64,000 nucleotides of DNA, taken from contig NC_043026.1 of the NCBI RefSeq assembly GCF_006345805.1, positions 8,556,001 to 8,620,000 on the forward strand. The letters run 5' to 3'. Of this stretch, positions 20,850-46,737 are shown piece by piece. The position numbers were made by a program, and so were the translations under genes. The stretch comes from Octopus sinensis (lineage: Eukaryota). How positions within the stretch are numbered: the first letter of the stretch is position 1; each line of letters starts with the position of its first letter. Under the pieces are notes generated by a model that worked only from the letters and a program-made list of their open reading frames with translations, was not told where the DNA came from and ran no database searches.

Positions 20850-22525
20850 CATTTTATGCAAGCTGGAAGAAAATAATGAGAAATGGGAAATTACTCATTT
20901 TGCCCCGCTTATTTTGTCCCCTTCACTATAAAAAGAAACGCATAAATTATAATAAAGCATTCGTTCGGGAGGAAGTCTTTCCGTACAGAAGTTGTTCGGT
21001 TGGCTGATCCTCTTTTTCCTGAACTTTGACCTCAGTGTAATTGAGGTTGCTAACAGAATATCGGGAAGAATGTTTGGTGTTTCAAGTTTCACAAAATGAC
21101 GTCTAAAATGGGGCAAAATGAGTAATGACTTGTTTTACTAATTTCTTCTTATATCAAGTTTTTTTGTTTTAAAAAAACCAGATTCGTAAATTTCATACCA
21201 TGTGCCATCCACCCCCCTCCAATCCTTTTTCATTTTACCAAAGTATTTAAACATGTTTTTGCATTTCTGATCTTTCTCATGTCGAAGGATTCGTGCTGGT
21301 GGTACATAAAAAGCATCATTCGAGTGTGGTCGTCGCCAGTGCTGCCTGACTGGCCTCGGGACAGTGGCATGTAAAAAGCACTCACTACACTCTTGGAGTA
21401 GTTGGCATTAGAAAGGGCATCCAGCTGTAGATGCAGCCTCTTAGCTTGCCAGTCCTTACTCAAACCGTCCAACCCATGCCAACATGGAAAGCGGACGTTA
21501 AACGATAATGATGATACAACGGGCTTCTCTCAGTTTCTCTCTACCAAATCCATGCACAAGGCTTTAGTTGGCCCGAGGCTGTAGTAGAAGACACTTGCCC
21601 AAGTGGGACTGAACCTGGGACCATGTGGTTGGGTTGGGAAACAAGCTTCTTAGAACACAGCCACTCCTGTGCCTAAACATATATATACATATATATATAT
21701 AACGGGAAGGTTTACGAAAATAAATAAAAGATGAAGGCAGGTGGAGTACAAACAACAAATGTTTAGTATGGCGCTCAGGAATAGAAATAGAAAAAGTCTT
21801 TTACATTTCGAGCCTACGCTTTCGTTTTTTTTTTTTTAATGTGTAGCTGGAGTTAAGAAATCTGTTAGCTTTACAAAAGATTTTCTGATGTTTTTGATAA
21901 TTAAAAAGTTCTGTTGTTCAGTTAAATGTTTGTTTCTAGAGTTATCTTTATGGAAATGTTGAATCTGTATTTTTTAAGTAGCCTCTATATCTTACACTTT
22001 TGTTTTTATTATTTCAGAATATCAGATGACATGGCATAACTGAAGATACACTCATTATTTATCAGCTTTTCAAAGACCAAATTGGAAATATTGTACAGAA
22101 CAGATATCAAGATTGTTTCTATAAATCTGTCTCTTACAACTGTTGTTTCTTTATTATTTCAGAATATCAGATGACGGTTGGCATAACTGAAGATACATTC
22201 TCATTATTTATCAGCTTTTTAAGACCAAAATGGAAATATTTTACAGAACAGATATATAAGATTGTTTCTATAAATCTATGGCAGAATTCCTCTGATATAT
22301 TTACTCTGAAATGTGTTATTAGTAAACCTTCTGGACATCACTGGCTGGAGTGTCTACAATGTGTCTCTTTGCAAATTAAACTTGGATAAATTTACTAACG
22401 AGTTTTTGGGACAAGGTAACACTGGACAGAAATACAGCAGTCGAAATACTTGCAAACAAAAGACTATAGAAGTACAAAGAAGAAAATATATATTTATTAT
22501 ATTGTGATTTTCAAAGAAAAAAATA

Positions 22526-23740
22526 ATGGAAAAGAGTGAGAACTAAAGGATCTGACTTTTCCAGAAGATAAAGAAAAAGGTAGACGAAAATCATCACATG
22601 ATTGTGATGTCTGTAAAAAGTCATTCTCTCGAAAAGGCAGCTTGAATATGCACAAACGTATTCATACAGGGGAGAAGCCATTTCACTGTGACGTCTGTGG
22701 TAAATCATTCTCTGACCCAAGTGCTTTAAATTATCACAAACACATTCATACAGGGGAGAAACCATATTCCTGTAATATCTGTGGTAAATCATTCCCTCGT
22801 AGCAGTGCGTTAACTCCTCACAAACGTATTCATACAGGAGAGACACCATATCACTGTGATACCTGTGGTAAATTATTTTCTTATAAAAGTGCTCTAACTA
22901 CTCATAAACGTATTCATACAGGAGAGACACCATTTCACTGTGAAATCTGTGGTAAATCATTCTCTCAAAGTGGCCACTTAGCTAAACATAAACGTTTCCA
23001 TACAGGAGAGAAGCCATATCCCTGTGATGTCTGTAACAAATCTTTCTCTAGCAGTAGTAACCTAACTACTCATATACGTATTCATACAGGAGAAACACCA
23101 TATTCTTGTGATATCTGTGGTAAATCATTCTCTCACATAAATTATTTGACTTTACACAAAAGTATTCATACAGGAGAGACACAATTTCACTGTGAAATCT
23201 GTGGTAAATCATTCTCTCAAAGTGGCCACTTGGCTAAACATAAACGTTTCCATACAGGAGAGACACCATATCATTGTGATATCTGTGGTAAATCTTTCTC
23301 TCAAAGTAGCAATTTAGTTGCTCATAAACGCTTCCATACTGGAGAGAGGCCATATCATTGTGATATCTGTGGTAAAATGTTTTCTGCAAGTATTTCCTTG
23401 ATTGTACACAAACGTATTCATACAGGAGAGAAGCCATATCAATGTGACATCTGTAACAAATCTTTCTCTGCCAGTAGTAACCTAATTGCCCATAAACGTA
23501 TTCATACAGGAGAGTCACCATTTCACTGTGAAATCTGTGGTAAATTATTTTCTCATAAAAGTGCTCTAACTATTCATAACGTATTCATACGGAGACGACA
23601 CATTTCACTGTGAAATCTGTGGTAAATCTTTCTCTCAAGTAGCAATTATGTGACGTCTGTAACAATCTTTCTCTGCCCAGTATACCTAATTACCCATAAA
23701 CGTATTCATACAAGAGAGACAACCAAATTATTGGTGACTA
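22526..23740 (+). pseudogene. Frameshifted C2H2 ZNF paralog of the 577 aa gene (about 12 fingers), or a gene carrying assembly indel errors
   Basis: ATG GAA AAG AGT GAG AAC TAA at 22526-22546 versus ATG GAA AAG AGC GAG AAA CTA in the paralog (1 nt deletion); finger frame open 22642..23613; several 1-nt indels after 23575. Confidence 0.75.
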
Positions 23741-25601
23741 GCAGAAAAACTACCCATAGGGTGGTTTTTCTGCTGAGTATTGTATTTTGCATATTGATAT
23801 ATATATATTATAAATATAGATATATATCTATAGATATATCTCATATATATATATATATTAAATCTCTGGACGAAGTATAAACAGTAACTGCACGACGAAG
23901 TGAGGTATATTTGCCATCTCAATATGGCTAACCACTAAGGGTGGGTGTTACTGTAGCTTTTAGCCCCAGGAGATCATCGTCTCCAGCTGGCTTTAGGCAC
24001 ACTACATGTGACCTTATGGTATTTGCAAAGGGAGGTCATCCTTCCCTCGTCAACCTAAGTGAAACGCACGGACTGCAGATTCTAGGTATTGACAGAAAGT
24101 GTGCCTAAAGCCAGCTAGAGACGATGTTCTCCTGGGGCTACAAGCTACAGTGACACCCACCCTTAGTGGTTAGCCATATTGAGATGGCTAGTATACCTCA
24201 CATATATATATTATTCCTCTTTTTCTCTCTCTTCTCTTCTCATGTGACTGATTGGCCTTTTGTGTCTGACCACGGTCACTGCCACATCAATATTCTTCCC
24301 TCTGCTGTAAGGCTTCATTTACCCAGGCTGGGTGCAAGAGACCGTTTCTGGGTAGTTTGAACATAAAATAGATGGAATATTTAGGCCAGCTATGGCTGGT
24401 TTAAATGCTAAAGAGTGGACACTAGATGTACCAACATTTCTTTCTTCTTACAAAGACCATAGCGGTCGTTTTTGACTCTCATTGAAAATCGCAATTAATA
24501 CAATTTATTTTAAATATCAGCAAATGCATTGAATAAAGGAATTGAAAATACATTCTTTTATCATTTATTTACATGCAAAAAATATATATCTATACACATA
24601 TATAAAATGATGCTCATGATTGCTCATTCAATAGAGTTGTAGAAATTAAAAAGTAATAAGCAGAATTAGTGATAAATGACCGCTCGGTACTTCTGGTGTT
24701 AACTAAATGTGTATCTATTCATATAGATGTGTGACTATCAATGTGACAGTCCATAAGAAAAATAAGCATTTTGAGCTCCTCCTAAATTGGTGATAGTGTT
24801 GTAGGCATTCTGCTTGGCAGTAACCTAGCTATTCATCAGGGGATTGCTATAATTGTCAAAGTTCCTTCTATGCCAAAAAAAGAAAACAAATAAGGGACAC
24901 TCTCTCTAATTGTAAAGAGATAGAACAGTGTGTGTTAACAACCTCCCAACTCTATAGCTTATCTCACCACATCTCAGGTAACTTACCTGTGGGATATTTT
25001 TGTTTTTGATAAAAGCCATTTCCTCCAGATTTTAAAAATAGTTGTAATAAATAAATCACATTGAATTTACGTGGTTCTTCTTGTCATTCTTTTGTATTCG
25101 GTAACTCCAGGCAGACAGACTAGACCGGTGAATGCATAACCAACACACAGCTACATCAAGATGAACCAGCCGCAGTCAACTTAAATAAAACTCATAACCA
25201 ACACTCATTATACGTATATGTGTCTGTGTTGGTCTCCCAGATATGAATCCTTAATTATATTATTTTTTTTTTTAAATCATGTGTACTTATATATGTGTTT
25301 ATAAATATGAAAATGTACGTATATAGGTGTGTGTGTGTGTTTCATGTGGGAAAAATTCTGGAGGGAAATACGAATTCACTCATCTATTTAAATGGGGATA
25401 TGCTAATTAGCTTCTGTATGCCCCGATGTCGCCCGATCGGAAATATGGAGGGTAAGATTTCCTAGCATTTCTAGATTTATTTACCGGAATATTATGTTGA
25501 TAAAGGAAATGAATCTTTGATTCTAATCCAGAAACGTGCGTCCATAATCGACCGTGGACTGTTTGATTTCATTATTTTTCTTCTTTTTTTGCTACATAAT
25601 G

Positions 25602-25940
25602 AGTTACAAATACTTTTGTCTGTGGAGACATATTTTTGTAGTAAAAGAAATAACAGTCTTCTGGCTGCTATTTCTAATACTTTGGGTATGTGGTCTCGCA
25701 ACCTGTTGCAAAGACCCTCTTTGTTATAATTATATAAACTTTTACCGAATATGGTCCTTTTAGTCCCCCACCGAAAAATAGTTTACAAATACTTTTGTCT
25801 GTGGAGACATATTTTTGTAGTAAAAGAAATAACAGTCTTCTGGCTGCTATTTCTAATACTTTGGGTATGTGGTCTCGCAACCTGTTGCAAAGACCCTCTT
25901 TGTTATAATTATATAAACTTTTACCGAATATGGTCCTTTT
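25602..25940. repeat. ~179 bp tandem duplication at an arm breakpoint
   Basis: TTACAAATACTTTTGTCTGTGGAGAC...GGTCCTTTT occurs twice. Confidence 0.9.
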
Positions 25941-26320
25941 CCACCGAAAAACTACTTGGTGAAATTTGTTGATTTTATTAAATTAAGTATATTTCACCCT
26001 ATATCTGTGATATATATATGGCCCAGTGGTTAGGGCAGCGGACTCGCGGTCGTAGGATCGCGGTTTCAATTCCCAGACCGGGCGTTGTGAGTGTTTATTG
26101 AGCGAAAACACCTAAAAGATCCACGAAGCTCCGGCAGGGGCTGGTGATCCCTGCTGTACTCTTTCGCTGCAACTTTCTTTCTTCTGTTGGCCTGCTTGCT
26201 TAGCCAGCGGGGTGGCGTCGGTTGAAGGCTAAGACAATGCAAATGCATTGTGACCAGCGATGTGTAACTACATCTGATGGACTGGTCGAAAAAAGAAGAT
26301 AAAAACAAGAAATATATATA

Positions 26321-26708
26321 TCTCTCCTATATAAACGGCAGTTTTGTCTGTGTGCGTGTCTTGTGTGTCTGTTAGGTCTTGTACCCTCACCCTGACCACG
26401 GCTTTTCAACCGATTCTGATGAAACTGACACACACATAGCCCAATGTCATAAATCGCCTCAAAACTAACGCAGGCGAAAATTTTGAAAAGTTCCCCCAGT
26501 TCTGAAAAAAATCGATAATTCGACATGGGGTCGAGAATCAAAACACAAACCGCAAACTGTCTAGGGACGCAACTCCACCTTTTTTCACTCTAAAAAAATT
26601 TACCATCATTTTTTTCCATTTTTTTGCTATTTTTTGGCTATAACTCTCTAAAAATGCTTTATGGTTATTTCCCTTACAAACCTGAGCAACGCCGGGCGAT
26701 ACTGCTAG
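26321..26708 (+). mobile_element. Non-autonomous Helitron
   Basis: 5' TCTCTCCTATATAAA, 3' CCTGAGCAACGCCGGG...CTAG. Confidence 0.8.
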
Positions 26709-27227
26709 TATACATATAATTGCTGTGTATAGTGTACTTTAAAATCACTCCTTCAAAAACATCTAGAATTTCAATCAAAGAAAGTCGACCACGTCCATAC
26801 AACCATTCTTTAATGAATACAAAATGAAAAGCAAAACATGGAAATAGAGTTATAATTTTTACAGATGAAAGTTAAAAACAACATCTGGTTTTTCAAGTAA
26901 AAACAGGGACTACTTCAGTTACGAAAATTCCTTTTCTTCCCCACCCAGAAAACCACTAAATATTGAATCCTAATTAATTAATACAAAAGAATAATGAAAG
27001 AAGACGTGGAACTGCAATTATATTTTTTACTGAAGAAAGTCAAAAAACAATATCTGGTTTTTCAATTAAAAAGCTTCACCGATTCCAATACAAAAATTCT
27101 TTTTCTTCCCCACCCCAAAAGATCAATAAGTATTAAATCCTAAACAAACAAGTCTGACCATTCCAATGGGAAAGCTGTACCCCTTTACCCCCCCCTCCTT
27201 CTCAAACTTTTTTCTTTCTTTTCCCCT

Positions 27228-27488
27228 CATCACCATCATTGTTCGACCGTGGTCGAGACAATGGAATTTATTATGCTACGCCAGACTTCACGGTCCATCA
27301 TAGCATTACGGAGGTCCTGTTGCTGGATGCCTGTATCCCTGGAGATACAGGGTAGGAGAGTGTGCACCCCCTGGTATCGCGAGCAGATGGCTTCCAGAGG
27401 AGAAGAGTAGAAATTGCCTCGTTTTCAGCTCAACAACAATGTCCAGCAAACTGGACTCTTCTACCTTTCACAAGAGATGATATGTATG

Positions 27489-27523
<35 letters not shown>

Positions 27524-27975
27524 TCATCATTGTTCGACCGTGGTCGAGACAATGGAATTTACCATACTACGCCAGACTTCACGGTTCATCATAGCATTAC
27601 GGAGGTCCTGTTGCTGGATGCCTGTATCCCTGGAGATTACATCAGGGTAGGAGAGTGTGCGCCCTCTGGTATTGCGAGTACATGGCTTCCAGAGGAGAAG
27701 AGGAGAAATTACTTCTTTTTCAGCTCTACAACAATGTCCAGCAAACTGGACTCTTCTACCTTTCACAAGAGATGACACAGGTGGTAGTTTCCCATATATT
27801 TGCATTTTGGTTGGATGGCGCTTCCACGAGAGATTTTGAGCTCTCATAAGGAGGCGAGTGTAGGTTCCATCCAACCGCCTCTCAAGCTTCTTCGATAACA
27901 TCCAGGTTTCTGAGCCATATAGTAGAATTGGTTCGACTGTGGCTTTGAATATTTCTTTTCCCTTGCTTGACAAAC
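27228..27975 (-). mobile_element. RTE-like LINE RT C-terminus with partial tandem duplication (27228-27480)
   Basis: IFKATVEPILLYGSETW...RRVQFAGHCCR; (CAT)n at 27521. Confidence 0.85.
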
Positions 27976-28750
27976 CCCACAGTTATATATGTAAAAGACA
28001 AATCTAACTTTAAACCACTTTTTAATAAATCTGACAATGGAAGAAAGCGCTAAAAATATGAATAAAATATATATAGGTTGTTGCCAGCGCAGGAGTGGCT
28101 GTGTGGTAAGTAGCGTGCTAACCAACCACATGGTTCAGTCCCACTGCGTGGCATCTTTGGCAAGTGTCTTCTGCTATAGCTCCGGGCCGACCAATGCCTT
28201 GGGAGTGGATTTGGTAGACGGAAACTGAAAGAAGCCCGTCGTATATATATGTATGTGTGTGTGTCTGTGTTTGTTCCCCTAGCATTGCTTGACAATCGAT
28301 GCTGGTGTGTTTACGTCCCCGTCACTTAGCGGTTCGGCAAAAAGAGACCGATAGAATAAGTACTGGGCTTACAAAAAGAATAAGTCCCAGGGTCGAGTTG
28401 CTCGACTAAAAGGTGGTGCTCCAGCATGGCCGCAGTCAAATGACTGAAACAAGTAAAGGAGTGCTGCGTGACTGACTCCAGTGCTGGTGGCACGTAAAAG
28501 GCACCATTCAAGCGTGATCAGTGCCAGTACTGCCTGACTGGCCCTCATGCTGGTGGTATGTAAAAAGCACCCACTACACTCTTGGAGTGGTTGGCGTTAG
28601 GAAGGGCATCCAACTGTAGAAACTTTGCCAAATCAGATTGGAGCCTGATGCAGCCTTTTGGTTTGCCAGTCTTCAGTCAGACCGTCCAACCCATGCCAGC
28701 ATGGAAAACAGACGTTTCGGGACGATGATGATGATAATCCATTATTCTGA

Positions 28751-29248
28751 CTAGCAGTATCGCCCGGCGTTGCTCGGGTTTCTAAGGGAAATAACTATAT
28801 AAGCATTTTTAGAGAGTTACTTCCCTTATAGATGCCAATTCGGGCTTTCTTAGCCATTTCTGTTTTGGTGTCTTCAAGCCATGAAGAACGCTGGTCTCCT
28901 TGACAACGCTTTACGACGTTGATTTCCTTACACTCCCTTCCCCACAGCTTCACGAGGGAGGGAAGAAGGGGGAGAAGCAAACAGGTGCAGGTGTGACCAT
29001 GGACGCCAACTCCGCCGCCATCGACACACGAAAAATTATGCATTAAAATGGAATAAAAAATGATGTTAAATTATTTTTAAAATCGTAGACTCATCGTAGA
29101 CGCGCGCTAATACTCAGACGGGCTCGATATGAATCACGACTATAAGATACCCGAATTTGGTTAAACTGCACCGCAAAATGTGGGAGTAGTTAGGAATCTA
29201 AATCGAAGGGGACAGACACTCACATAACTACAGTTTTATATATATAGA
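28751..29248 (-). mobile_element. Non-autonomous Helitron
   Basis: CTAGCAGTATCGCCCGGCGTTGCTCGGG at the left end and TATATATAGA at the right end. Confidence 0.78.
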
Positions 29249-32200
29249 TATATATCACTTCAAAAACTTTCTCTTTCTCTCTCTCTTTACTAGCAGAGGC
29301 GCCTGGGAATGAAGTTGTGCCACATCTATTGGAAGAAAAAAGCAAAATATATTGTATAGAAATTTGTTATTCTAAATTCAAGTCTTTAATTGAGAAACTA
29401 ATTCTGACAAAAATGAAAATATAAAATTTACCTCGTTTATGAAGGGAGATAACTCCTATCACATGAAGGAAATTACGTGAAAGCTCCTGGGTGAAACCTC
29501 TTCCCCAGAAGTACATCCAGTGATGATGATAGCTCCCATCACATTAGGTTATAATGTCTTCACAATCAACCTTGTCCCATTGCGTAATTTAGGAGGATCT
29601 CAATTTCTTAGAAGTATTATTGGGAAACGTTACCACGCCGGGTGAAATGCGTAGCCGTATTTCGTCTGCCGCTACGTTCTGAGTTCAAATTCCGCCGAAG
29701 TCGACTTTGCCTTTCATCCTTTCATGGTCGATAAATTAAGTACCAGTTACGCACTGGGGGTCGATATAATCGACTTAATCCGTTTGTCTGTCCTTGTTTG
29801 TCCCCTCTGTGTTTAGCCCCTTGTGGGTAGTAAAGAAATAGGTATTTCGTCTGCCATTACGTTCTGAGTTCAAATTCCACCGAGGTCGACTTTGCCTTAC
29901 GTGGTCGATAAATTAAGTACCAGTTACGCACTGGGGATCGATATAATCGACTTAATCCGTTTGTTTGTCCCCTCTGTGTGTAGCCCCTTGTGGCTAGTAA
30001 AGAAATAGGTATTTATATTTTTTCAGATTTTTATTATTTTCGGTGGGAGGTTTTGGAACGTAACACCCACGTTAGTCGAGGGAATGCTGTATAATACCTA
30101 TTTCTTTACTACCCACAAGGGGCTAAACACAGAGGGGACAAACAAGGACAGACACAGGTATTAAGTCGATTACATCGATCCCCAGTGCGTAACTGGTACT
30201 TAATTTATCGACCCCGAAAGGATGAAAGGTAACGTCGACCTCGGCGGAATTTGAACTCAGAACATGTTTCTTTATTACCCACAAGGGGCTAAACATAGAG
30301 GGGACAAACAAGGACAGACAAACGGATTAAGACGATTACATCGACTCCAGTACTTAACTGGTACTTAATTTATCGACCCCGAAAGGATGAAAGGTAACGT
30401 CGACCTCGGCGGAATTTGAACTCAGAACATAAAGACAGATGAAATACCTATTTCATTACTACCCACAAGGGGCTAAACACACAAGGGACAAACAAGGACA
30501 GACAAACGGATTAAGTCGATTACATCGGTCCCCAGAGCGTAACTGGTACTTAATTTATCGACCCCGAAAGGATGAAAGGTAACGTCGACCTCGGCGGAAT
30601 TTGAACTCAGAACATGTTTCTTTATTACCCACAAGGGGCTAAACATAGAGGGGACAAACAAGGACAGACAAACGGATTAAGACGATTACATCGACTCCAG
30701 TACTTAACTGGTACTTAATTTATCGACCCCGAAAAGATGAAAGGTAACGTCGACCTCGGCGGAATTTGAACTCAGAACATAAAGACAGATGAAATACCTG
30801 TTTCTTTACTACCCACAAGGGGCTAAACACAGAGGAGACAAACGGATTAAGTCGATTACATCGACCCCAGTGCGTAACTGGTACTTAATTTCTCGACCCC
30901 GAAAGGATGAAAGGCAAAGTCGACCTCGGCGGAATTTGAACTCAGAACATAAAGACAGACGAAACACCGCTAAGCATTTCTCCCGGCGTGCTAACGTTTC
31001 TGCCAGCACGCCGCCTTCCCAGCTCAAGCAGAAGGCCTCAAATTTGGGGGAAGGGCCGTATAATACTAAACGACATTAAAAATACAAATGCAAAACCGGG
31101 AGAGAAAAGAGACACAAAGAAAAACCCCAAAAAGGGTAAAAGCGAAAACGAAAGTATCGAAATACTGCAAGAATCAGGGGAAATAACTGAAGGTTTTTTT
31201 CTTGTCCTGTTATGTATGTAGCTCTTGAGCAGAGAAGGTATAAAGAGTAGTGAGAACCGAAGGGGATCCAAGTCGACAAGAAACGAAAGATGGGCCAAGT
31301 CTATGTCATTTGTATTTGATAATTCATTGTAGAATACGGCATTAATCAATGTCGTCCTCTTGGTTATAGAGGCACGAACACCCCTGGCTGCATATGAAAA
31401 CGGTGAGTTGGCAAAGATTCCTTTCTTCTATACACACAAGGCCTGAAACTTTGGTGAAGGGGACTTGTCAATTATATCGACTCCGCTGGGAATTAATTTA
31501 TCGACAGCGAAAGGGTGAATAGGCAAAGTCGACCCTGGCGGAATTTGAACTAAGAACGTAGCGGCAGACGAGTTCAAATTCCGCCGAGGTCGAGTTTGCC
31601 TTTTCACCCTTTCGGGGTCGATAAATTAAGTACCAGTTACGTACTGGGGTTGATGTAATCGACTTAATCCGTGTGTCTGTCCTTGTTTGTCCCCTCTATG
31701 TTTAACCCCTTGTGGGTAGTAAAGAAATAGGTATTTCGTCTGCCGTTACGTTCTGAGTTCAAATTCTGCTGAGATCGACTTTGCCTTTCATCCTTTCAGG
31801 GTCGATTAAATAAGTACTAGTTATGCACTGGGGTCGATATAATCGACATATTCCCTTTGTCCTTGTTGTCCCCTCTGTGTTTAGCCCCTTGTGGGTAGTA
31901 AAGAAATAGGTATTTCGTCTGTCTTTACGTTCTGAGTTCAAATTCCACCGAGGTCGACTTTGTCTTTCGTCCTTTCGGGATCGATAAATTAAGTACCAGT
32001 TTCGCACTGGGGTTGATGTAATCGACTTAATCCGTGTGTCTGTCCTTGTTTGGCCCCTTGTGGGCAATAAATAAATAAGAAATGATGGCATGCCGGGCGA
32101 AATGCTTAGTATTTCACCTCTTTATGTTCTGAGTTCAAATTCCACTGAGGTCGGCTTTGCCTTTCGCCCTTAAGAGGGTCGATAAATTAAGTACCAGTTG

Positions 32201-33958
32201 CGTACTTGGGGTTGGTCTAATCAACTGGCCCCTTCCCACCAAATTTCAGGCGTTGTGCCTAGTGTAGAAAAGAATATTTCTGCTCTTTGATTTTGGTCCT
32301 TTGATGTGACATTGTTTTTGTTATATCCACATAAATACATAAAAACAGAACAAACACACACACACACAAGAACAGACGTACAGAAGGAGGGAAGCACTCC
32401 ATCGGTTACGACAACGAGGGTTCCGGTTGATCCCAATCAACGGAACAGCCTGCTCGTGAAATTAACATGTAAGTGGCTGAGCACTCCACAGACAGGTGTA
32501 CCCTTAACGTAGTTCTCGGGGATATTCAGCGTGACACAGAGAGTGACAAGGCCGGCCCTTTGAAATACAGGTACAACAGAAACAGGAAGTAAGAGTGAGA
32601 GAAAGTTGTGGTGAGAAGAGTACAGCAGGGATCACCACAACGCCCGGTCTGGGAATCAAAACCGTGAGTCCGCTGCCCTAACCACTGGGCCATTGCGCCT
32701 CCACTTACAGACGTACAACCCATTAGCTTGCTCTCTCCACTTCGCCACGTCAAACAGAACAAGCATGCAACTGACAAAGACAACACATGCTCACAGAAAT
32801 TACCGAGAAGTATGTTTACAAAAATCGACTCAAAACGAAATTATGCCCATCATTTAATCATCATCATCATCATCATCGTTTAGCATCCGCTTTCCATGCT
32901 AGCATGGGTTGGATGGTTCAACTGGGGTCTGGGAAGCCAGAAGGCTGCATCAAGCCCAGTCTGATCTGGCAGTGCTTCTACGGCTGGATGCCCTTCCTAA
33001 GACCAACCACTCCATGAGTGTAGTGGGTGCTTTTTATGTGCCACTTGCACAGGTGCCAGACGAGGCTGGCAGACGGCTATGCATATATATTCTTTTTTTT
33101 TTTTTACTTGTTTCTGTCATTTGACTGTGGCCATGCTGGAGCACCGCTTTTAGTCAAGCACATCGACCCCAGTACTTATTCTTGGACTTTCCTCCATCTC
33201 CTCTCCTTTGCTCAAACTACTTATCTTTCCTTCCCTGAGTGCTGCTAATACTTAACATGTACCACGTCCTCACGTTGTAACCAAAGCCTTGTGAGTAGAT
33301 TTGGTATTCAGTATAATGCATGCACATTTGTGTGTGTGTGTATTATGTATCTTCTATATCTTACATTTTTGTTTATTTTTTCAGATTATTTAATGATATT
33401 GGCATCAAAGAATTCTTTACATTGGAAATAATCCTTTTGCTACAAATCTGATACAATCACTATTCTGAACTATTTCTTCTGAACTGAGATATACCGGAAC
33501 ATTCCTGTCAGTCGCTCAAATCAGACAAAATCATTCTACGGTATGATTTTTGCTTGTTAATTCAGTATGGATTACAAATTACTGAAGAATTTCTAGCAGA
33601 TGTACTTACTGACAAAGACCACAGCTGATGGAAATTTAACAGTGAATTAATAAGTATTTTGGAGATGTACTTGCATAGCAAGTGACTTGATCTGAGATCG
33701 TGTGCTGAAACGAAAACAATTGCAGCGTGGAAGGTGTTTGTAAGCCATTTAAGAAACACACAAAAGCCGTTCGATTCACTTCAACATTTAAGTTTTATTT
33801 GTCAAAATATTTCCGTCGCTTTAAGACCGCAACCTGTTTGCTGACAAAAATCCATGCTGCATCCGTGATGCAGGATGGATTTTTGTTAAGTATTTGTTTG
33901 GAACCAACTACAAAAGCAACAATAAATACCTGTATATTTTGGTGAGACCAGAATAATT

Positions 33959-35227
33959 ATGGAAAATGAATTGTGTGAAAACCAGGAGGAATTTGAAACA
34001 GATTTCCAGAAAGTTGATTCTCCTGACGCCATGATGAAAGGAACTGGTGATATCTACCAGTGTGATATCTGTAAGAAGATATTTTCACAAAAATGTAAAC
34101 TCACTGCACACAGCAGCGTTCATGCTGGGAAGAAGCCACACCACTGTAGTATTTGTGGTAACTCATTCTCTCGCAAAGCAAACTTAGCGACTCACCAACG
34201 AATTCACAGTGGAGAGAATCTGTACCACTGCGATATTTGTGATAAGTCGTTCTATCAGAAAGGTCACCTTGTTAACCACCAGCGTATCCACACAGAAGAA
34301 AAGCCATTCCGCTGTGATGTCTGCGGTAAATCCTTCTCTCAAAAGAGCAACCTCACTTCACACAGCCATGTTCATACAGGGGAGAAACCATATCACTGTG
34401 ATATCTGTGGTAAAACGTTCTCTCACAAATGTGACTTAATCAATCACCAACGCATTCATACAGGGGAGAAGCCTTATCACTGTGATATCTGTGGCAAATC
34501 TTTCTCTCAAAGAAGCACTTTGATTGTGCACAAACGCATGCATACAGGGAAGAAGCTGTACCAGTGTTCTGTGTGTGGCAAATCAATATCTGGAACAAGC
34601 AACTTGACTAAACACATTCTCATTCATACAGGTGAGAAACCGTATCACTGTGACATCTGTGGTAAATCATTCTCTTGTGGGAATACTTTAACCAGACACG
34701 AACGTATTCATACAGGAGAGAAACCATATCAGTGCGATGCGTGTGGCAAGCCGTTCTCTGACATTGGCGTCTTAACTATACACAGACGTACTCACACAGG
34801 AGAGAAACCATATGACTGCGACATCTGTGGAAAGTCCTTTTCTCAAATCCATAATTTAACCACTCACAAACGTTCCCATACAGGCGAGAAGCCATATCAC
34901 TGTGATATCTGCGACAAGTCGTTCTCTCGCAAAAATAACTTGATTAGTCACCAACGCATTCATACAGGTGAGAAACCATATTGTTGTGATATCTGTGATA
35001 AGTCCTTCTCGCAAAAAAATAATTTGATTGTCCATAGGCGCCGGCATACGGGCGAAAAGCTGCATTGGTGCTCCGTGTGTGGCAAGTCGTTCTGTCAGAA
35101 GGTTGAATTGACTTCTCACGAACGTATTCATACAGGTGAGAAACCATATCACTGTGACATCTGTGGTAAATCATTCTCTCAAAGACATCACTTAACAACA
35201 CACTCGAGTATTCATTCGGATAAATAA
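33959..35227 (+). CDS. C2H2 zinc-finger protein, 422 aa (acidic leader, 14 fingers)
   Basis: ORF MENELCE... with 14 canonical fingers; splice acceptor at 33383-33384. Confidence 0.94.
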   Translation: MENELCENQEEFETDFQKVDSPDAMMKGTGDIYQCDICKKIFSQKCKLTAHSSVHAGKKPHHCSICGNSFSRKANLATHQRIHSGENLYHCDICDKSFYQKGHLVNHQRIHTEEKPFRCDVCGKSFSQKSNLTSHSHVHTGEKPYHCDICGKTFSHKCDLINHQRIHTGEKPYHCDICGKSFSQRSTLIVHKRMHTGKKLYQCSVCGKSISGTSNLTKHILIHTGEKPYHCDICGKSFSCGNTLTRHERIHTGEKPYQCDACGKPFSDIGVLTIHRRTHTGEKPYDCDICGKSFSQIHNLTTHKRSHTGEKPYHCDICDKSFSRKNNLISHQRIHTGEKPYCCDICDKSFSQKNNLIVHRRRHTGEKLHWCSVCGKSFCQKVELTSHERIHTGEKPYHCDICGKSFSQRHHLTTHSSIHSDK

Positions 35228-35929
35228 CTGTGTCAGTGCCAAAAGTTAGGTTGTGCAAAATAAATTATTCCATATTTCTTAACCAAATGGTCTTTTTTGT
35301 CTTTTTTTTCTTCCCCTCTCCCCCCCCACCTGAAATTGCTGTGCAAATGCTCTCTCTTTTTTCTTGTTTCAGTCATCTGTCTGCGGCCATGCTGGAGCAC
35401 CTCCTTTAGTCGAGCAAATCAGCCCCGGGACTTATTCTTTGTTAGCCCAGTACTTATTCTATCGGTCTCTTTTACTTGTTTCAGTCATTTGACTGCGGCC
35501 ATGCTGGAGCACCTCCTTTAGTCGAGCAAATCGGCCCCAGGACTTATTCTTTGTTAGCCCAGTACTTATTCTATCGGTCTCTTTTACTTGTTTCAGTCAT
35601 TTGACTGCGGCCATGCTGGAGCACCGCCTTTAGTCGAGCAAATCAGCCCCGGGACTTATTCTTTGTTAGCCCAGTACTTATTCTATCGGTCTCTTTTGCC
35701 GAACCGCTAAGTGACGGGGACGTAAACACACCAGCATCGGTTGTCAAGCAATGCTAGGGGGACAAACACACACACGCATATATATCATATATATATATAC
35801 ACACATATATACAACATGGTTCTAGGTTCAGTCCCACTGCGTGGCATCTTGGGCAAGTGTCTTCTGCTATAGCCTTGGGCCGACCAAAGCCTTGTGAGTA
35901 GATTTGGTAGATGGAAACTGAAAGAAGCC

Positions 35930-36265
35930 CACCCATCTAACACCCGTGGACATATTTACAAAGTAAGAAAACAGCACAGCTCCCATGACTTCAGGAAACA
36001 TTTTTTCACGCTGAGAGTTGCTGAAGCGTGGAACAAACTGCCGACATCGGTTGTTAGTTGTCGGAGCACTGCATCCTTCAAAACTTCCATGCTTCCTGAG
36101 ATTCGCCAACACTACACCTGATTTTCTCCCCTCCATACACACACAAGCATGTTCACTTTCCAGACATTTCTACACTACTGCATGTACTTTATATGCACTT
36201 TCTGACAAGTTGTGGTGCACCTGAGCACTGTATACAATAATTTCATTATTATTATTATTATTATT
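35930..36265 (+). mobile_element. Second CR1/L2-like LINE family 3' end with (ATT)n tail; another copy at about 54408-54715
   Basis: NTRGHIYKV...RKHFFTLRVAEAWNKLP motif. Confidence 0.8.
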
Positions 36266-37174
36266 ATATGTATATAAATGTATGTTTGTGTGTCTGTGTT
36301 TGTCCCCCTAGCATTGCTTGACAACCGATGCTGGTGTGTTTATGTCCCCGTAACTTAGCGGTTTGGCAAAAGAGACCGATAGAATAAGTACTGGGCTTAC
36401 AAAGAATAAGTCCTGGGGTCGATTTGCTTGACTAAAAGGTGGTGCTCCAGCATGGCAACAGTCAAATGACTGAAACATGTGAAAGAGAGTATATATACGT
36501 GTGTATGTGTATGAAGGGCTCCTTTTCATTTCTGTCTATCAAATCCACTCCCAAGGCTTTGGTTGATCTGGAGCTATACAAGGGAATACTGGAAAGTCCC
36601 TAGCTTTGGGTAAAAGAAAATACAGAAGGATCAGTTAATTATGATTTTATTCAACATAGGCGCAGGAGTGGCTGTGTGGTAAGTAGCTTGCTTACCAACC
36701 ACATGGTTCCGGGTTCAGTCCCACTGATTTTTTAAAATATATATATCTCTTTACTCTTTTACTTGTTTCAGTCATTTGACTGCGGCCATGCTGGAGCACC
36801 GCCTTTAGTCGAGCAAATCGTAACTGGTACTTAATTCATGCGTAACTGGTACTTAATTTATCGACCAAAGGATGAAAGGCAAATCGACCTCGGCGGAATT
36901 TGAACTCAGAACGTAGCGGCAGACGAAATACGGCTACGCATTTCACCCGGCGTGGTAACGTTTCCCAATAATACTTCTAAGAAATTGAGATCCTCCTAAA
37001 TTACGCAATGGGACAAGGTTGATTGTGAAGACATTATAACCTAATGTGATGGGAGCTATCATCATCACTGGATGTACTTCTGGGGAAGAGGTTTCACCCA
37101 GGAGCTTTCACGTAATTTCCTTCATGTGATAGGAGTTATCTCCCTTCAAAAACGAGGTAAATTTTATATTTTCA

Positions 37175-37510
37175 AACCCACATGTAAACTGCAAAACTAA
37201 GGGCACTGTATACCAAATTGAGTGCCAAGAAAGAGCTTGCACGACTAACCCAGAGTCACACGTAGGTGAGACTTCTAGGAGTATCAATGATAGGTTCAAA
37301 GAACACCTGGACAACTACATTGAAAGGAAGCCAAACTCCATCTTCTACCAACATGCTGTAGACTGCCAAAAGGGATCCTTAGGGAAACTTAAGTTAAACA
37401 TCCTATCAACACATCCCACCGATGCAATGTTGAGACAGGTCACAGAAGCTGTTTGTAGACAAGAATACAAACCTACTCTCAACCGAAAGTCCGGATGGGG
37501 TAACATCCAG
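37175..37510 (+). mobile_element. Penelope-like element GIY-YIG endonuclease fragment
   Basis: Manual translation NCKTKGTVYQIECQERAC...HVGETSRSINDRFKEHL...EAVCRQEYKPTLN; no start codon, so absent from the ORF track. Confidence 0.8.
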
Positions 37511-39514
37511 ACAACATATTTGTAACTCATTATGTGGCAAAAAAAGAAGAAAAATAACAAAATCAAACAGTCCACGGTCAATTATGGACGCATACGTTTC
37601 TGGATTAGAATCAAAGATTCATTTCCTTTATAAACATAATATTCCGATAAATAAATCTAGAAATGCTAGGAAATCTTACCCTCCATATTTCCGATCGGGC
37701 GACATCGGGGCATACAGAAGCTAATTAGCATATCCCCATTTATATAGATGAGTGAATTCGTATTTCCCTCCAGAATGTTTCCCACGTGAAACACACACAC
37801 ACACATCTATATACGTACATTTTCATATTTATAAACACATATTTAAGTACACATGATTTTTTTTTAAATAATATAATTAAAGATTCATATCTGGGAGACA
37901 AACACAGACACATATACATACACACTTATATATATAATGAGTGTTGGTTATGAGTTTTGCTTGCGAGTTAACTGTGGCTGGTTCATCTTGATGTACCTGT
38001 GTGTTGGTTATGCATTCACTGGTCTATTCTGTCTGCCTGGAGTTACCGAATACAAAAGAATGACAAGAAGAACCACGTAAATTCAATGTGATTTATTTAT
38101 TACAACTCTTTATAAAAATACATGGCAAATGTCTTACATATTGTGAAGAAGTTTTAACGAACTCTATCTGGAACAGTGGAAGTTGTATCACAGTTGAAAT
38201 TCTGTAGCATCTTCCTGGTTTTGTTCTGTGTGCTGGGCAGCATCAGTTGTCCTGATCTCATCTCCATCTCTCCTTCCTTCTCTCTGCACAAAAACGGTAA
38301 AGACCATTCCTTATATAATGACTGGTGGTCCAGAAGAGAAACTAGTATTTTCAGTGCTTGCAATTTCACTTGGCTTCATGTATCTTTTCGTTTGTAATAA
38401 TTTAAAGATTAATAGCCAGGAAGACAATATGCTTCCTACAAATATAAATGTTGGGTTTTTTTCAGTTTCATTCTAAAAAACCCACTCACAAGCGGTTTGG
38501 TTCTGTGTTGGGCAGTATCAGTTGTTATAATCTCATCTCTCTCCTTTCTTCTCTCTGCCCAAAACCTTGAGGGATTGTTCTTTATAAAATGACTGGTGCT
38601 CAGAAAGAGAATTTTTCTGCTTGGAATAAAAACAGTTGCTCATACACCAATCGGCTAATTAAGACCATTCGATCTTTGCAACAGATTCAGCCCAACCCTA
38701 ATCACATGACCCATGTTGACTATCTCAAAATACATCATCATCATCACCACCTAATGTTTGCTGTCCATGCTGCTATGGATTGGCAAACTGGAAGGTCTGA
38801 TTTGGCAAGTGTTCTATGGCCAGATGCCCTTCTCCACATGAACCATTCTGAGAGTGTAATGGGTGCCTTCAAGTGCCAGAACCAGGGTTGCCGTAAGCAT
38901 TACACCAGTACCAACTTCCTACATATATAAATAATGGGTTTCTTTCAGTTTCTCTCTAACAAACCCACTTACAAGGGTTTGTTTAGCCTAGGGTTATAGT
39001 AGAAAAGACTTGCCCAAGGTGCCATGCCGAGGGACTGAAACCAAAACCATGTGATTTGGAATTAAGATTCTTACCACACAGTCACACCAATTAATTTTAA
39101 TAAAATTCATGCAAAACATTTAAAATCTGGAAGAAATGGCTTTTATTAAAAAAAAAATATCCCACAGGTAAGTTACCTGAGATGTGGTGAGATAAGCTAT
39201 AGAGTTGGGAGGTTGTTAACACACACTGTTCTATCTCTTTACAATTAGAGAGAGTGTCCCTTATTTGTTTTCTTTTTTTGGCATAGAAGGAACTTTGACA
39301 ATTATAGCAATCCCCTGATGAATAGCTAGGTTACTGCCAAGCAGAATGCCTACAACACTATCACCAATTTAGGAGGAGCTCAAAATGCTTATTTTTCTTA
39401 TGGACTGTCACATTGATAGTCACACATCTATATGAATAGATACACATTTAGTTAACACCAGAAGTACCGAGCGGTCATTTATCACTAATTCTGCTTATTA
39501 CTTTTTAATTAAAC

Positions 39515-40060
39515 GATTCGGATAGTGCTTTTTACATATCTCCAGTCCAGGGGTCCTGGCATCTGCCGGGTGCCAGTCATAGGATTGGTTCAATTTCGAT
39601 TCCGATTTCACTTGCCCCAACAGGTATTCGCAAGCAGAGGGGGGTTGGCATAGGTGCCTGTCGTCGGATGAGGTTCGATATCGACTTCGCTTGCCTCAAC
39701 AGGTCTTTGTGTGTCCAAGGGAGGAAAGGCATGCATAAGTGGGCTGGACTCACTTGTCCTGCCTGGTCTTTTCCCGCACAGCATATTTCCAAAAGTCTCG
39801 GTCGCTGGTCATTTCCTCAGTGAGACCTAAAGTTCGAAGGTCTTGCTTCACCACCTCGTCCCAGGTTTTCCTGGGTCTACCTCTTCCACGGGTTCCCTCC
39901 ACTGCTAGGGATTGGCACTTTTTCACACACCTATCTTCATCCATTCTCGCCACATGACCATACCAGTGCAATCGTCTCTCTTGCACACCACAACTGATGC
40001 TCCTTAGGTCCAACATTTCTCTCAGGGTACTAACGCTCTATCGAGCATGCATACTGACCA
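39515..40060 (-). mobile_element. RTE-clade LINE fragment just downstream of the 577 aa ZNF stop
   Basis: RRLHWYGHVARMDEDR...GTRGRGRPRKTWDEVV. Confidence 0.88.
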
Positions 40061-40112
40061 ATATGCACAATACATACTCTAGCAGAAAACCACCCTTTGG
40101 GTAGTTTTTCTA

Positions 40113-41846
40113 CTAGTCACAATAATTTGGTGTCTCTCCTGTATGAATACGTTTATGGGTAATTAGGTTACTACTGGCAGAGAAAGATTTGTTACAGATG
40201 CCACAGTGATATGGCTTCTCTCCTGTATGAATACGTTTGTGTACAATCAAGGAAGTACCTGCAGAAAACATTTTACCACAGATATCACAATGATATGGCC
40301 TCTCTCCAGTATGGAAGCGTTTATGAGCAACTAAGTTGCTACTTTGAGAGAAAGATTTACCACAGATATCACAATAATACGGTGTCTCTCCTGTATGAAT
40401 ATGCTTGTGACTAGTTAAAGCACTACTCTGAAAAAATGATATACCACAGATATCACAGCGATATGGTTTCTCTCCTGTATGAGTACGTATATGAGTAGTT
40501 AGGTTACTACTGATAGAGAAAGATTTGTTACAGACATTACAGTGATATGGCTTCTCTCCTGTATGAATACGTTTGTGTACAATCAAAGAAGTGTTTGCAG
40601 AGAATAATTTACCACAGATATCACATCGATACGGTTTCTCTCCTGTATGGAAACGTTTGTGAGAAGTTAAGCTGCCACTGCGAGAGAATGATTTACCACA
40701 GATATCACAATAATATGGTGTCTCTCCTGTATGAGTATGCTTGTGACTAGTTAAAGCGCTACTCTGAGTAAATGATAGACCACAGATATCACAGTGATAT
40801 GGCTTTTCTCCTGTATGAAGACGTTTATGTGTAGTTAGGTTACTACTGATAGAGAAAGATTTGTTACAGATGTTGCATTGATACGGTTTCTCTCCTGTAT
40901 GAATACGTTTATGATCGGTCAAAGCAGAGTTGCGAGGGAATGATTTACCACAGATATTACAAGAATATGGTTTATCTCCTGTATGAGTACATTTGTGAGA
41001 ATTTAAAGTATTTTGGCCAGAGAATGATTTACTACAGATGTCACACTGATATGGCTTTTCTCCTGTATGTACATGTTTTTGACGATTTAAATCAATTTGG
41101 TCAGACTTCTCTCCTGTATGGGTACGCATATGAGTAGTTAGGGTACTACTGACAGAGAATGATGTACCACAGACATCACAGTGATAGGGCTTCTCTCCAG
41201 TATGAATACGTTTGTGTACAATCAAGGTAGTACCTGCAGAAAACAATTTACCACAGATATCACAGTGGTATGGCTTCTCTCTGGTATGGAAGCGTTTGTG
41301 AGCAGTTAAGTTGCCACTTTGAGAGAATGATTTACCACAGATATCACAGTGAAATGGTGTCTCTCCTGTATGAATATACTTGTGACTAGTTAAAGCATTA
41401 CTCTGAGAAAATGATTTACCACAGATATCACAGTGATACGGCTTCTCTCCTGTATGAATACGCTTGTGACGAGTTAACGCACTGCTACGAGGGAATGATT
41501 TACCACAGATATTACAGGAATATGGTTTCTCCCCTGTATGAATACGTTTGTGACGAGTTAAAGCACTTGGGTCAGAGAATGATGTACCACAGACGTCACA
41601 GTGATACGGCTTCTCTCCTGTATGACTATGTTGGTGTGTAGTCAAGTTAATTTTTTGAGAGAATGATTTACCACAGACGTCACAGTCAAATGGCTTCTCC
41701 CCTGTATGAATACGTTTGTGCATATTCAAGCTGCCTTTTCGAGAGAATGACTTTTTACAGACATCACAATCATGTGATGATTTTCGTTTACCTTTTTCTT
41801 TATCTTCTGGAAAAGTCAGATCCTTTAGTTTCTCGCTCTTTTCCAT
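40113..41846 (-). CDS. C2H2 zinc-finger protein, 577 aa (19 fingers plus one internally deleted finger)
   Basis: [11 protein letters not shown]...; degenerate unit [17 protein letters not shown]; acceptor at 42193-42194 on the minus strand. Confidence 0.94.
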
Positions 41847-44800
41847 TATGTTTCTTCGAAAATCACAAAATATATATTTTCATTTTGCTTCTATAGTCTT
41901 TTGTTTACAAATATTTCAACTGTTGTATTTCTGGCCACTGTTACCTTTGTCACAAAACAACTAAATTTATCCACGTTCAATCTGCAAAGAGACACATCTT
42001 GTAGACACTCCAGCCAGTGATGTCCAGAAGGTTTCCTAATAACACATTTCAGAGTAAATATCAGAGGAATTCCACCACAGATTTATAGAAACAATCTTAT
42101 ATATCTGTTCTGTACAATATTTCCATTTTGGTCTTTAAAAGATGATAAATAATGAGAATGTATCTTCAGTTATGCCAATGTCATCTGATATTCTGAAATA
42201 ATAAAGAAACAACAGTGTAAGATATAGAGGCTACTTAAAAAAATACAGATTCAACATTTCCATAAAGATAAACTCTAGAAATAAACATTTACCTGAACAA
42301 CAGAACTTTTTAATTTATCAAAATTTACATCAGAAAATCTTTTGTAAAGCTAACAGATTTCTTAACTCCAGCTACACATTAAAAAAAAAAAAAACGAAGA
42401 GCGTAGGCTCGAAATGTAAAAGACTTTTTCTATTTCTATTCCTGAGCGCCATACTAATACATTTGTTTGTTTGTACTCCACCTGCCTTCATCTTTTGTTT
42501 ATTTTCGTAAACCTTCCCGTTATATATATATATGTATATATATGTTTAGGCACAGGAGTGGCTGTGTTCTAAGAAGCCAACCACATGGTCCCAGGTTCAG
42601 TCCCACTTGGGCAAGTGTCTTCTACTACAGCCTCGGGCCAACTAAAGCCTTGTGCATGGATTTGGTAGAGAAAACTGAGAGAAGCCCGTTGTATCATCAT
42701 TATCGTTTAACGTCCGCTTTCCATGTTGGCATGGGTTGGACGGTTTGAGTAAGGACTGGCAAGCTAAGAGGCTGCATCTACAGCTGGATGCCCTTTCTAA
42801 TGCCAACTACTCCAAGAGTGTAGTGAGTGCTTTTTACATGCCACTGTCCCGAGGCCAGTCAGGCAGCACTGGCGACGACCACACTCGAATGATGCTTTTT
42901 ATGTACCACCAGCACGAATCCTTCGACATGAGAAAGATCAGAAATGCAAAAACATGTTTAAATACTTTGGTAAAATGAAAAAGGATTCGAGGCGGGGGGA
43001 TGGCACATGGTATGAAATTTACGAATCTCGCTTTTTTAAAACAAAAAAACTTGATATAAGAAGAAATTAGTAAAACAAGTCATTACTCATTTTGCCCCAT
43101 TTTAGACGTCATTTTGTGAAACTTGAAACACCAAACATTCTTCCCGATATTCTGTTAGTAACCTCAATTACACTGAGGTCAAAGTTCAGGAAAAAGAGGA
43201 TCAGCCAACCGAACAACTTCTGTACGGAAAGACTTCCTCCCGAACGAATGCTTTATTATAATTTATGCGTTTCTTTTTATAGTGAAGGGGACAAAATAAG
43301 CGGGGCAAAATGAGTAATTTCCCATTTCTCATTCTTGTCTTCCAACTTGCATAAAATGGGTCCCACTAGCGAACAGTGGTCCCGGTGCGCGCCCACGCTA
43401 GCTGGACGTAAGTAGTCGATCCTACAACAACTTTTTAATCCTAACCCTGGTTTACTCTTTTACTTGTTTCAGTCATTTGACTGCGGCCATGCTGGAGCAC
43501 CGACTTTAATCGAGCAACTTGGCCCCGGGACTTATTCTTTTTGTAAGCCCAGTACTTATTCTATCGGTCTCTTCTGCAGAACCGCTAAGTGACGGGGACG
43601 CAAACACACCAGCATCGGTTGTCAAGCAATGCTAGAGGGACAAACACAGACACACAAACATACATACATATATACGACAGGCTTCTTTCAGTTTCCGTCT
43701 ACTAAATCCACTCACAAGGCATTGGTCGGCCCGAGGCTATAGTAGAAGACACTTGCCTAAGATGCCACGCAGTGGGACTGAACCCGGAACCATGTGGTTG
43801 GTAAGCAAGCTACTTACCACACAGCCACTCCCACGCCTATTTGTTTGTTTATAAAAATAATTTATTTAATTAGTTTAAAAAATTATTTAGGATCGACTAG
43901 TTTCGACTAGCTAGTACGGATACGTGTGTGCGCACCGGGACCACTATTCGCTAGTAGTACCTATAAAATGATTACATTGTGAGTATGCCTCATCATTTGG
44001 TATTACTATATTATATCTGGGAGTAAAAAAAAAAGGGCAAGACATCCTTTCGTAAACGAGGGGACGGGACGGGAGGAAGCCTTTCTTTCGTTTCTTAACA
44101 TTTCTGTGGTTGGAATGTATTTTAAGAATATTTCCCCAACTAAAAACACCCAAGAAACGTAAAAGGGAAAACTAGGATATTACTCATTTTGCCCCGCTTA
44201 CTAATTTCGTCCCTCTGCCCATATCAAGAAGCAAGCATTCGATAAATTATAATAAAACATTGGTTTCTCAACATTTCTGTGGTCGGAGTTTATTTGGGAA
44301 CATTTCTCAAACTAAAACAGAACAGACGAATGTGGAAACGATGGAAAGTGTAGGAAGAAATGAGGAATTACTCATTTTGCTCCGCTTACTAATTTCGTCC
44401 CCTTCCTGATATCAAGAAACAAGGGTTCGATAAATTATAATAAAGCATTGGTTTCTCAGCATTTCTGTGGTTGGAGTTTATTCTAAGAATATTTCTCCAC
44501 CTAAAACACACAACAAACAAACTTAAAGAAGAAACGATGGAGCGTGTAGGAGGTTGCCGCCATAGCTAGAAATAGCAGCCAAATTGGAACAGATCAAAGG
44601 ACATCTGAGACACCAAAGTATTAAAAGATTAAATGTTTTCGTTGTTTAATACTCACGGAAATGTCTTTATAAAGGATGGTGTTGTTGTTATGAGTGCATC
44701 TCTCTATCAGGTGATAGAGAGAGATGTATCTTAAACGCGTTCGGGAGTTAATTAAGAGAACTCCCAGCACCTGACATATTTGTCAAGATGTAATGAATGG

Positions 44801-46700: not shown

Positions 46701-46737
<37 letters not shown>

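Follow-up and report, generated by a model that had tools for sequence, protein, structure and literature searches.

Gain or loss of fingers is the commonest domain change between primate orthologs of zinc-finger genes (ZNFs) (Nowick et al. 2011, PMC3126818), and finger numbers differ in 23 of 24 mammalian paralog sets, with 1 of the 24 human and mouse expansions equal (Emerson and Thomas 2009, PMC2604467). In four PRDM9 orthologs that direct recombination, the share of diversity located at DNA-contact sites is 0.41–0.91, a range for which the site set may differ from the one used here (PMC5519329 Table 1). C2H2 genes have expanded in octopuses and other cephalopods (PMC9068888, PMC12513265), reaching 1,453 proteins with four octopus-specific clades in Octopus bimaculoides (PMC12513265). 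The function of this large expansion is debated between neural regulation and transposon control, and the papers cited here describe it through gene counts, trees, expression and aggregate motif prediction. As a class, octopus ZNF motifs were predicted to be enriched in transposable elements (TEs) (Wells et al. 2023, PMC10547256); in humans, published motif predictions agreed with measurement in 11 of 236 cases (PMC10547256 section 6), and TE targeting by KRAB-less ZNFs, including those of octopus, is also discussed in PMC12988792 (section 2.4). Here, a mirrored pair of C2H2 genes, named A and B, was analyzed in a 64,000-nucleotide stretch of the Octopus sinensis genome (the window; NC_043026.1, positions 8,556,001 to 8,620,000) and compared with these systems.

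The A and B genes are probably sister C2H2 genes in which whole 84-nt fingers differ through unequal crossing-over and gene conversion of fingers that were present before the duplication. The original prediction for this locus, a mirrored pair with near-identical flanks and reshuffled finger arrays, rested on an observation that is real but overstated. The turnover is the standard route by which poly-zinc-finger paralogs diverge, an ordinary process in a less-studied animal; since the mechanism is well known from mammals, the surprise is low.

Organization of the A and B finger arrays

Six C2H2 arrays lie within the window. The inner pair (A/B) and the outer pair (C/F) both belong to one imperfect inverted duplication of about 52 kb (nested inverted matches from 346 to 52574, 91–99% identity), a relation missed at the first reading of the sequence. 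The arrays and arms are as follows.

2326-3588, + strand: C array, 13 intact fingers, outer mirrored pair and internal control
12644-13672, + strand: D array
22540-23613, + strand: A array
33926-35227, + strand: E array
40113-41879, − strand: B array
49541-50803, − strand: F array, mirror of C
346..29753, + strand: left duplication arm with genes C and A, defined by nested inverted matches
36839..52574, − strand: right duplication arm with genes B and F, a chain of inverted matches in common with the left arm

The D array lies in an 8-kb block found only on the left (7678-15693), and E lies in the spacer. The arms carry many TE-sized indels, and the window sequence is contiguous. As predicted, the 5′ flanks of A and B are nearly identical, with 84 substitutions in 3260 aligned bases (2.6%; 19233-22686 versus 44979-41685) plus a 149-bp tandem duplication present in A only. 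The C/F arm differs at 44 of 2895 bases (1.5%). Divergence along the arms is patchy, from 0.5 to 5%, and amounts to 3.2% at 19233-20713. The coding parts of the inner pair are the following.

22526..22596, + strand: gene A, ATG and short leader, from the sequence
22597..23520, + strand: gene A, fingers A1-A11, with helices YKSALTT in A4, QSGHLAK in A5 and A8, and HINYLTL in A7
23521..23797, + strand: gene A, broken tail with an A4-like finger 12, a QSSN-type remnant, a B19-like terminal finger, stop region and start of the 3′ untranslated region (UTR)
40113..41846, − strand: gene B, coding region with ATG at 41846, an intact open reading frame (ORF) of 577 aa with a 24-aa leader

The finger counts, predicted as about 12 and 19, were confirmed for B, where 19 fingers are intact and a further 51 nt separating B8 from B9 are an in-frame remnant. 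They needed correction for A, which has 11 intact fingers, a 12th that is frameshifted past its first His, and then remnants of a QSSN-type finger, the B terminal finger and the stop. Judging from these remnants, A probably had 14–15 fingers originally. Across 924 nt the reading frame of these 11 fingers is unbroken and none of their Cys, His, Phe and Leu core residues is lost; pure sequencing noise was therefore ruled out as the origin of the fingers found only in A.

Collinear counterparts in B, at 0–7 nt per 75, were found for 7 of the 11 intact A fingers: A1/B1 (0), A2/B3 (7), A3/B4 (2), A6/B15 (4), A9/B17 (2), A10/B18 (2) and A11/B19 (3). The first finger and the QSSNLVA finger (A9/B17) are indeed shared, as had been claimed, but the sharing is far larger than those two. 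The arrays are alike at both ends and different in the middle, where A4-A8 stand in place of B5-B16; B2 is absent from A. In the finger tree, five counterpart pairs received bootstrap values of 91–100, the identical A1 and B1 aside, and A6 fell inside the B8/11/15/19 clade. All helices named in the original prediction sit at their given places, and the four called private to A hold up as such: A4, A5, A7 and A8 (YKSALTT, QSGHLAK twice, HINYLTL) have no close B counterpart, their nearest B fingers being 10–14 nt per 75 away (13–19%). A5 and A8 are 3 nt per 84 apart. The ISSNLTT helix of B15 is not private to B, as SSSNLTT of A6 differs from it by one base, at helix position −1.

Turnover by whole-finger units

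Within B, a 336-bp higher-order repeat of four fingers is directly visible as B5-8, B12-15 and B16-19 (Tandem Repeats Finder (TRF), period 336, 2.9 copies, 84%). Its clades were recovered with bootstraps of 97 (B5/12/16), 100 (B7/14/18 with A10) and 95 (B8/11/15/19 with A6 and A11). The closest internal neighbors of B fingers are 6–20 nt per 84 apart, versus 15–26 in C, D and E. All six high-scoring tracts between A and B fall at multiples of 84 nt once the 51-nt remnant is taken into account, and together with the 336-bp repeat they bear out the claim that turnover proceeds by whole fingers. A2 is a junction finger with a B2-like start (1 nt per 33) and a B3-like end, as expected from an in-register deletion or insertion of one finger.

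The A-only fingers are too divergent to have arisen by point mutation since the duplication. At the 2.6% flank rate the binomial probability was 2 × 10−5 to 8 × 10−9, and even at 5% it was 0.004 to 2 × 10−5; new helices by point mutation were thus ruled out. Their depth equals that of B's own repeat copies (B6/B13/B17 are 10–13 nt apart), indicating that they are older units. The 26 differences among counterpart fingers included six whose two states are both found, in phase, elsewhere among the fingers, where random mutation would give 1.4 (P = 0.004); 13 were unshared in A, 4 unshared in B and 3 unshared in both.

A4-A8 may be remnants of a longer ancestor or imports from a third copy, and the window fits both. 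In protein searches, the B2 helix QKINLTT was also found in the Octopus vulgaris protein P0155, which has a different leader, and a His+3 relative of A5 (QSDHLTA) was found in O. sinensis P0164. The search with A4-A5 gave no match above 74% identity among 65 candidates of 196–625 aa, which is not evidence of absence. The homolog search with full-length B was dominated by vertebrate ZNFs, and an exact-sequence comparison of five window proteins with the protein collection gave no match. A sister subfamily of six nearly identical proteins lies on one chromosome of O. vulgaris; positions +2 and +6 of finger 2 vary, but finger order is kept in five of the six, so not every young set reshuffles.

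In the proposed sequence of events, the ancestral gene would have been one of several copies in a young subfamily and would already have had the four-finger repeat. After the duplication, A and B would each have had different blocks deleted or replaced by misaligned recombination between repeat units, namely B2, which is missing from A, and B5-B16 versus A4-A8. The zinc-binding core would have stayed under purifying selection and the contact residues would have drifted or diversified, and the frameshift and noisy ends of A would be mostly long-read consensus errors. The A and B proteins would act as sequence-specific DNA-binding regulators without a recognizable effector domain, and the whole-finger differences would give them partly different DNA targets.

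Selection and the C/F control pair

The prediction that the other mirrored pair is almost invariant was confirmed, with C and F differing at 9 of 1263 nt and at one amino acid. The ratio of nonsynonymous to synonymous changes (N:S) was 20:6 among A/B counterpart fingers versus 1:8 in C/F (P = 0.0009). Synonymous divergence was indistinguishable (6/121 in A/B versus 8/214 in C/F, P = 0.58), indicating that the two pairs are of similar age. C/F looks to be under purifying selection despite an in-frame TGA that lies in both copies just upstream of the array, in a leader-like stretch (2326-2370, + strand; 50761-50803, − strand). Because of this TGA, the first usable Met lies inside the degenerate first finger.

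Core zinc-finger codons carried no changes at 108 nonsynonymous sites versus 20 at 359 elsewhere (P = 0.006). A codon model was fitted to a tree of 30 fingers from A and B, without A12, with contact positions taken as −1, 2, 3 and 6. This check, which the original prediction had proposed, gave an excess at contact codons (dN/dS (omega) of 2.10, P = 0.0007), versus 0.52 for scaffold codons and 0 for core codons. Contact omega was 1.64 (P = 0.049) once six deep or unpaired fingers were left out, 1.77 for B alone (P = 0.033), 1.33 for C (P = 0.34) and 0.91 for E (P = 0.74). Diversifying selection at contact codons is suggested by these values; the omega is fragile and tree-based. A further pN/pS of 2.35, obtained by comparing A-only fingers with nearest B fingers chosen by hand, suffers from bias in that choice and was not used.

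A stronger claim would make A/B a fast-turnover coding satellite built on the four-finger unit, with contact residues under diversifying selection and arrays polymorphic among octopuses, beside a frozen pair of similar age. This is doubtful. If true, this one locus, with its own internal control, would make it possible to test for an arms race of KRAB-free zinc fingers with transposons in a mollusc.

Sequence quality of copy A

As assembled, A meets a TAA at 22544-22546, six codons past its ATG, a stop also missed at the first reading. It results from one A missing behind 22540, a base that is present in contigs of all four runs, among them the A-type contig of run X5. Upstream lies the duplication that is absent from B.

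21990..22277, + strand: 149-bp tandem duplication of the exon 2 acceptor in gene A only (AG at 22016-17 and 22161-62), detected by TRF

Both 149-bp copies show indels of 1–2 nt versus B and versus a third copy at 59470-59650, and contigs show B-like letters at 22031 and 22176. The duplication is likely an unmerged assembly overlap. Short indels reached 32 per kb at 21801-22130 and 39–59 per kb in the A tail, versus 0 in A9-A11 and 0.9–6.2 per kb in the C/F arm. Indels versus substitutions numbered 9 versus 7 and 5 versus 7 in the tail segments and 7 versus 44 in the C/F arm. Read from the sequence, this pattern suggests a poorly polished long-read consensus.

Short-read contigs end at shared linkers, and those listed, 32 of more than 52,000 pieces, make up a small fraction. 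Leader pieces that agree with B-type counts were found in runs X1, X2, X5 and X9. A-type leader pieces were found in X5 (record 18, 4 substitutions, where B would give 11) and X2 (record 10, 0 substitutions, where B would give 1), and the variants of record 18 also occur in X1 and X9. Other individuals carry both leader types, and the presence of the two together in runs of two different organisms favors real paralogs over alleles. In four runs, the contig pieces that cover A6 show 8–9 nt differences to A, and X2 record 14 shows 8 differences where the window's B would give 12; other paralogs may be the source of these pieces. Joints in register, for example from 22723 to 23396 (672 nt), were seen in one contig each in three of four runs, with short sides; possibly derived from other paralogs, they were not used. 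The A1-A11 array looks like real biological sequence, with its placement and exact letters provisional.

Alternative explanations

Several results weigh against divergence by whole-finger exchange between two sister genes. The 1.7-kb core of A is more diverged than its upstream flank, with noisy sequence on both sides, and a donor paralog for A4-A8 was not found among the 65 candidates of the A4-A5 search. The helices of A4, A5, A7 and A8 are spanned by no high-identity piece among the 32 contig pieces listed, and among the 24 runs listed, the share of A's sampled words that a run contains is 0.28 at most. Unshared changes are commoner in A (13 of the 26, against 4 in B) and include an Arg to Pro at +6 of A3; this excess fits decay or error as well. 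As to selection, the contact excess among counterpart fingers alone was not significant (6/65 versus 6/121, P = 0.35), and dN/dS estimated from trees cannot be relied on where conversion takes place between fingers (PMC5519329, PMC3890296).

The original prediction had allowed that the flanks might be recently homogenized or one array misassembled, and this is partly borne out. Divergence between A and B rises from 1.1% just upstream of the duplicated acceptor (14/1332) to 5.0% just downstream (23/462, P = 3 × 10−6), so that a join or conversion border is possible there, and noise occurs at both A ends. There is a small chance that 22131-23800 (1.7 kb) is a real, separate and slightly older sister paralog that the assembler, or a long conversion, placed within a B-like flank, and that the contrast of alike flanks with unlike arrays is exaggerated. 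The noisy 149-bp duplication at the left border and the dense indels at the right one agree with this, as does the related O. vulgaris subfamily with its six proteins encoded on one chromosome; A-type leader variants, with a summed depth of 279 in X1 versus 43–73 for single long pieces, give a rough hint of several copies. A4-A8 are nested within B-like fingers on both sides, however, and a join at 22130 cannot explain the A-only block. Divergence is, moreover, patchy along the whole arms, synonymous divergence in A/B is no different from that in C/F, and the window has no N gap.

It is rather improbable that A is a decaying duplicate whose frameshift and broken tail are real and whose array differences reflect neutral repeat turnover. 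The early stop as assembled, a counterpart N:S of 20:6 near the neutral site ratio of 467:121, and the excess of unshared changes in A, with a proline in a helix, would agree with decay. Against it, A-type leader contigs in all four runs carry the nucleotide A that keeps the frame, the 11 fingers retain frame and core residues, and indels in the tail match or exceed substitutions, unlike in the C/F arm. Very improbable is a PRDM9-like hypervariable locus, in which A and B would be alleles (haplotypes misassembled as an inverted duplicate) or a homogenized polymorphic coding minisatellite. The arm divergence of 0.5–5% with many TE-sized indels could be allelic, B's internal neighbors are closer than those of C, D and E, and the A6 contig pieces do not fit A exactly nor, in the case of X2 record 14, the window's B. 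Yet the two leader types co-occur in runs of two organisms, as paralogs would, the sequence is contiguous without gaps, and finger identity, contact-site diversity and domain content, given below, all differ from what such a locus would show. Whole-finger exchange between sister paralogs is retained as the probable account.

Predicted gene structure and leader

Both genes appear to share an upstream organization, predicted from the sequence as a non-coding exon 1, an intron, and an exon 2 that holds a UTR of about 350 nt and the whole coding region.

19384..19558, + strand: gene A, putative promoter and non-coding exon 1, from motif positions, mirrored in B at 44821-44657
42192..44821, − strand: gene B, putative promoter, exon 1 (to 44657) and intron, mirror of A, with exon 2 starting at 42192

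The exon 1 donor of A is GTGAGT at 19559, and its promoter contains motifs that are presumably NRF1-like and ETS-like. In two runs guessed to be RNA, contig depth across the predicted acceptor at 22017 climbs from 1.2 to 73 and from 5.5 to 71, a weak hint that this acceptor is used. The acceptor and start of the 5′ UTR (21925-22430) reach a summed contig depth of about 900–13,000 in two DNA runs, versus about 40–330 for single long pieces. Weaker versions of this block precede C/F, E and D, and it may be a cassette common to many octopus ZNFs. The A/B promoter, the donor of exon 1 and the beginning of the intron recur as a third copy at 56639-57325 (+ strand; 82.6% to A). The acceptor block of this copy at 59470-59650 (+ strand) is 1 nt in 180 from that of B and ends about 120 nt into exon 2; no zinc-finger array follows in the window. 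The far higher identity of this acceptor block than of its promoter points to a mosaic or to recent conversion. The intron contains a degenerate tandem repeat (about 190–200 bp; 19657-20120, mirrored at 44087-44551), which recurs at 56908-57274 and 60864-61063.

The A/B leader is of mixed charge with a basic end, and the leader alone gave no credible Pfam match. The N-terminal 46 residues of B gave two matches among five candidates, both from O. vulgaris with 76% identity over residues 1-46, and the leader of O. sinensis P0018 is similar to that of A/B, with the MEKSEKL start common to both. Short N-terminal leaders with an ME(K/N) start were noted at 12653-12757 (D), 33959-34060 (E) and 41775-41846 (B). 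Those of D and E are acidic and by sequence reminiscent of the FiNZ domain of fish ZNFs, with a putative effector role; like the A/B leader, they gave no credible Pfam match.

Neighboring elements

A self-complementary, high-copy element of about 300 bp, resembling a miniature inverted-repeat TE, lies directly behind gene A (23900-24201) and is absent behind B. A candidate fragment of a long interspersed nuclear element lies just behind the B stop (about 40030-39750). Two overlapping ORFs of long-terminal-repeat-retrotransposon type were found at 61379-63416 (+ strand), the second with reverse transcriptase and RNase H matches.

Comparison with known systems

A and B are tandem poly-C2H2 genes, with 11 and 19 intact fingers where the class calls for at least four CxxC-x12-HxxxH fingers with TGEKP-type linkers, and with Pfam zf-C2H2 and zf-H2C2_2 matches far above the cut-off. 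The leader matches place their nearest relatives among octopus ZNFs, that is, within the octopus-expanded C2H2 genes. In agreement with the original prediction, KRAB was absent: neither KRAB (PF01352) nor SCAN, SET or SSXRD was among the Pfam matches listed for five ORFs (the best 25 of 31 for B). Pfam found no KRAB in the leader alone either; the scan covered the five ORFs and the leader, and the upstream ORFs were covered by reading. An in-frame stop lies upstream of the B ATG, and a contig of a run guessed to be RNA extends 113 nt upstream of the A ATG. Membership in the KRAB-ZNF family was rejected on these domains.

The comparison with PRDM9 drawn in the original prediction is not supported beyond general features. 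A/B resemble PRDM9 in their 84-bp tandem units, copy-number change and variation enriched at −1, 3 and 6 (PMC3890296, PMC5519329). They differ in that the recent duplication unit in B is four fingers, that the fingers are not homogenized (mean identity within arrays 74%, or 79–80% outside contact codons), and that no KRAB-SSXRD-PR/SET domains are among the listed Pfam matches; membership was rejected on this basis. The contact-site share of diversity in A/B is 0.25–0.27 (positions −1, 3, 6) or 0.32–0.34 (−1, 2, 3, 6), close to the 0.21–0.30 of C, D and E and below the published PRDM9 range, whose site set may differ, and the private helices predate the duplication.

The KRAB-less ZNFs proposed to target TEs, among them those of octopus and the cyprinid FiNZ-ZNFs, share with A/B the absence of KRAB, a short N-terminal leader and fast contact residues (PMC10547256); FiNZ itself is Glu-rich, unlike the A/B leader. 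From the aggregate octopus predictions, transposon targets for A and B are plausible, and the link to TE recognition raised in the original prediction had already appeared as a hypothesis for octopus (PMC10547256). Like other genes of the octopus expansion, A and B are clustered multi-finger C2H2 genes in TE-rich DNA (PMC9068888, PMC12513265), and to the gene counts, trees and expression of those papers the present analysis adds finger-level turnover within a young pair. A literature search, conducted largely without subscription journals, found no work that examines an octopus paralog pair at the level of single fingers. A and B, young genes whose promoters match and whose arrays differ, would permit a direct comparison of binding targets beside a pair of the same age with one amino acid change. 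The frozen C/F control is the useful feature of the locus, and the sequence quality of copy A is its weak point; finger counts and pseudogene calls in such clusters hinge on assembly quality.

The closest likeness is to young poly-zinc-finger and KRAB-ZNF paralogs, which undergo whole-finger duplication and deletion between recent copies, show raised contact omega, and are sited in segmental duplications with frozen genes beside fast ones (PMC2604467, PMC3126818). Finger gain and loss together with raised contact omega were likewise found in A/B. The pair differs from mammalian KRAB-ZNFs in lacking KRAB, SCAN and BTB, in having apparently one coding exon behind a non-coding exon, and in belonging to a mollusc. 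In its mode of change, the A/B pair works like young KRAB-ZNF paralogs and not like PRDM9.

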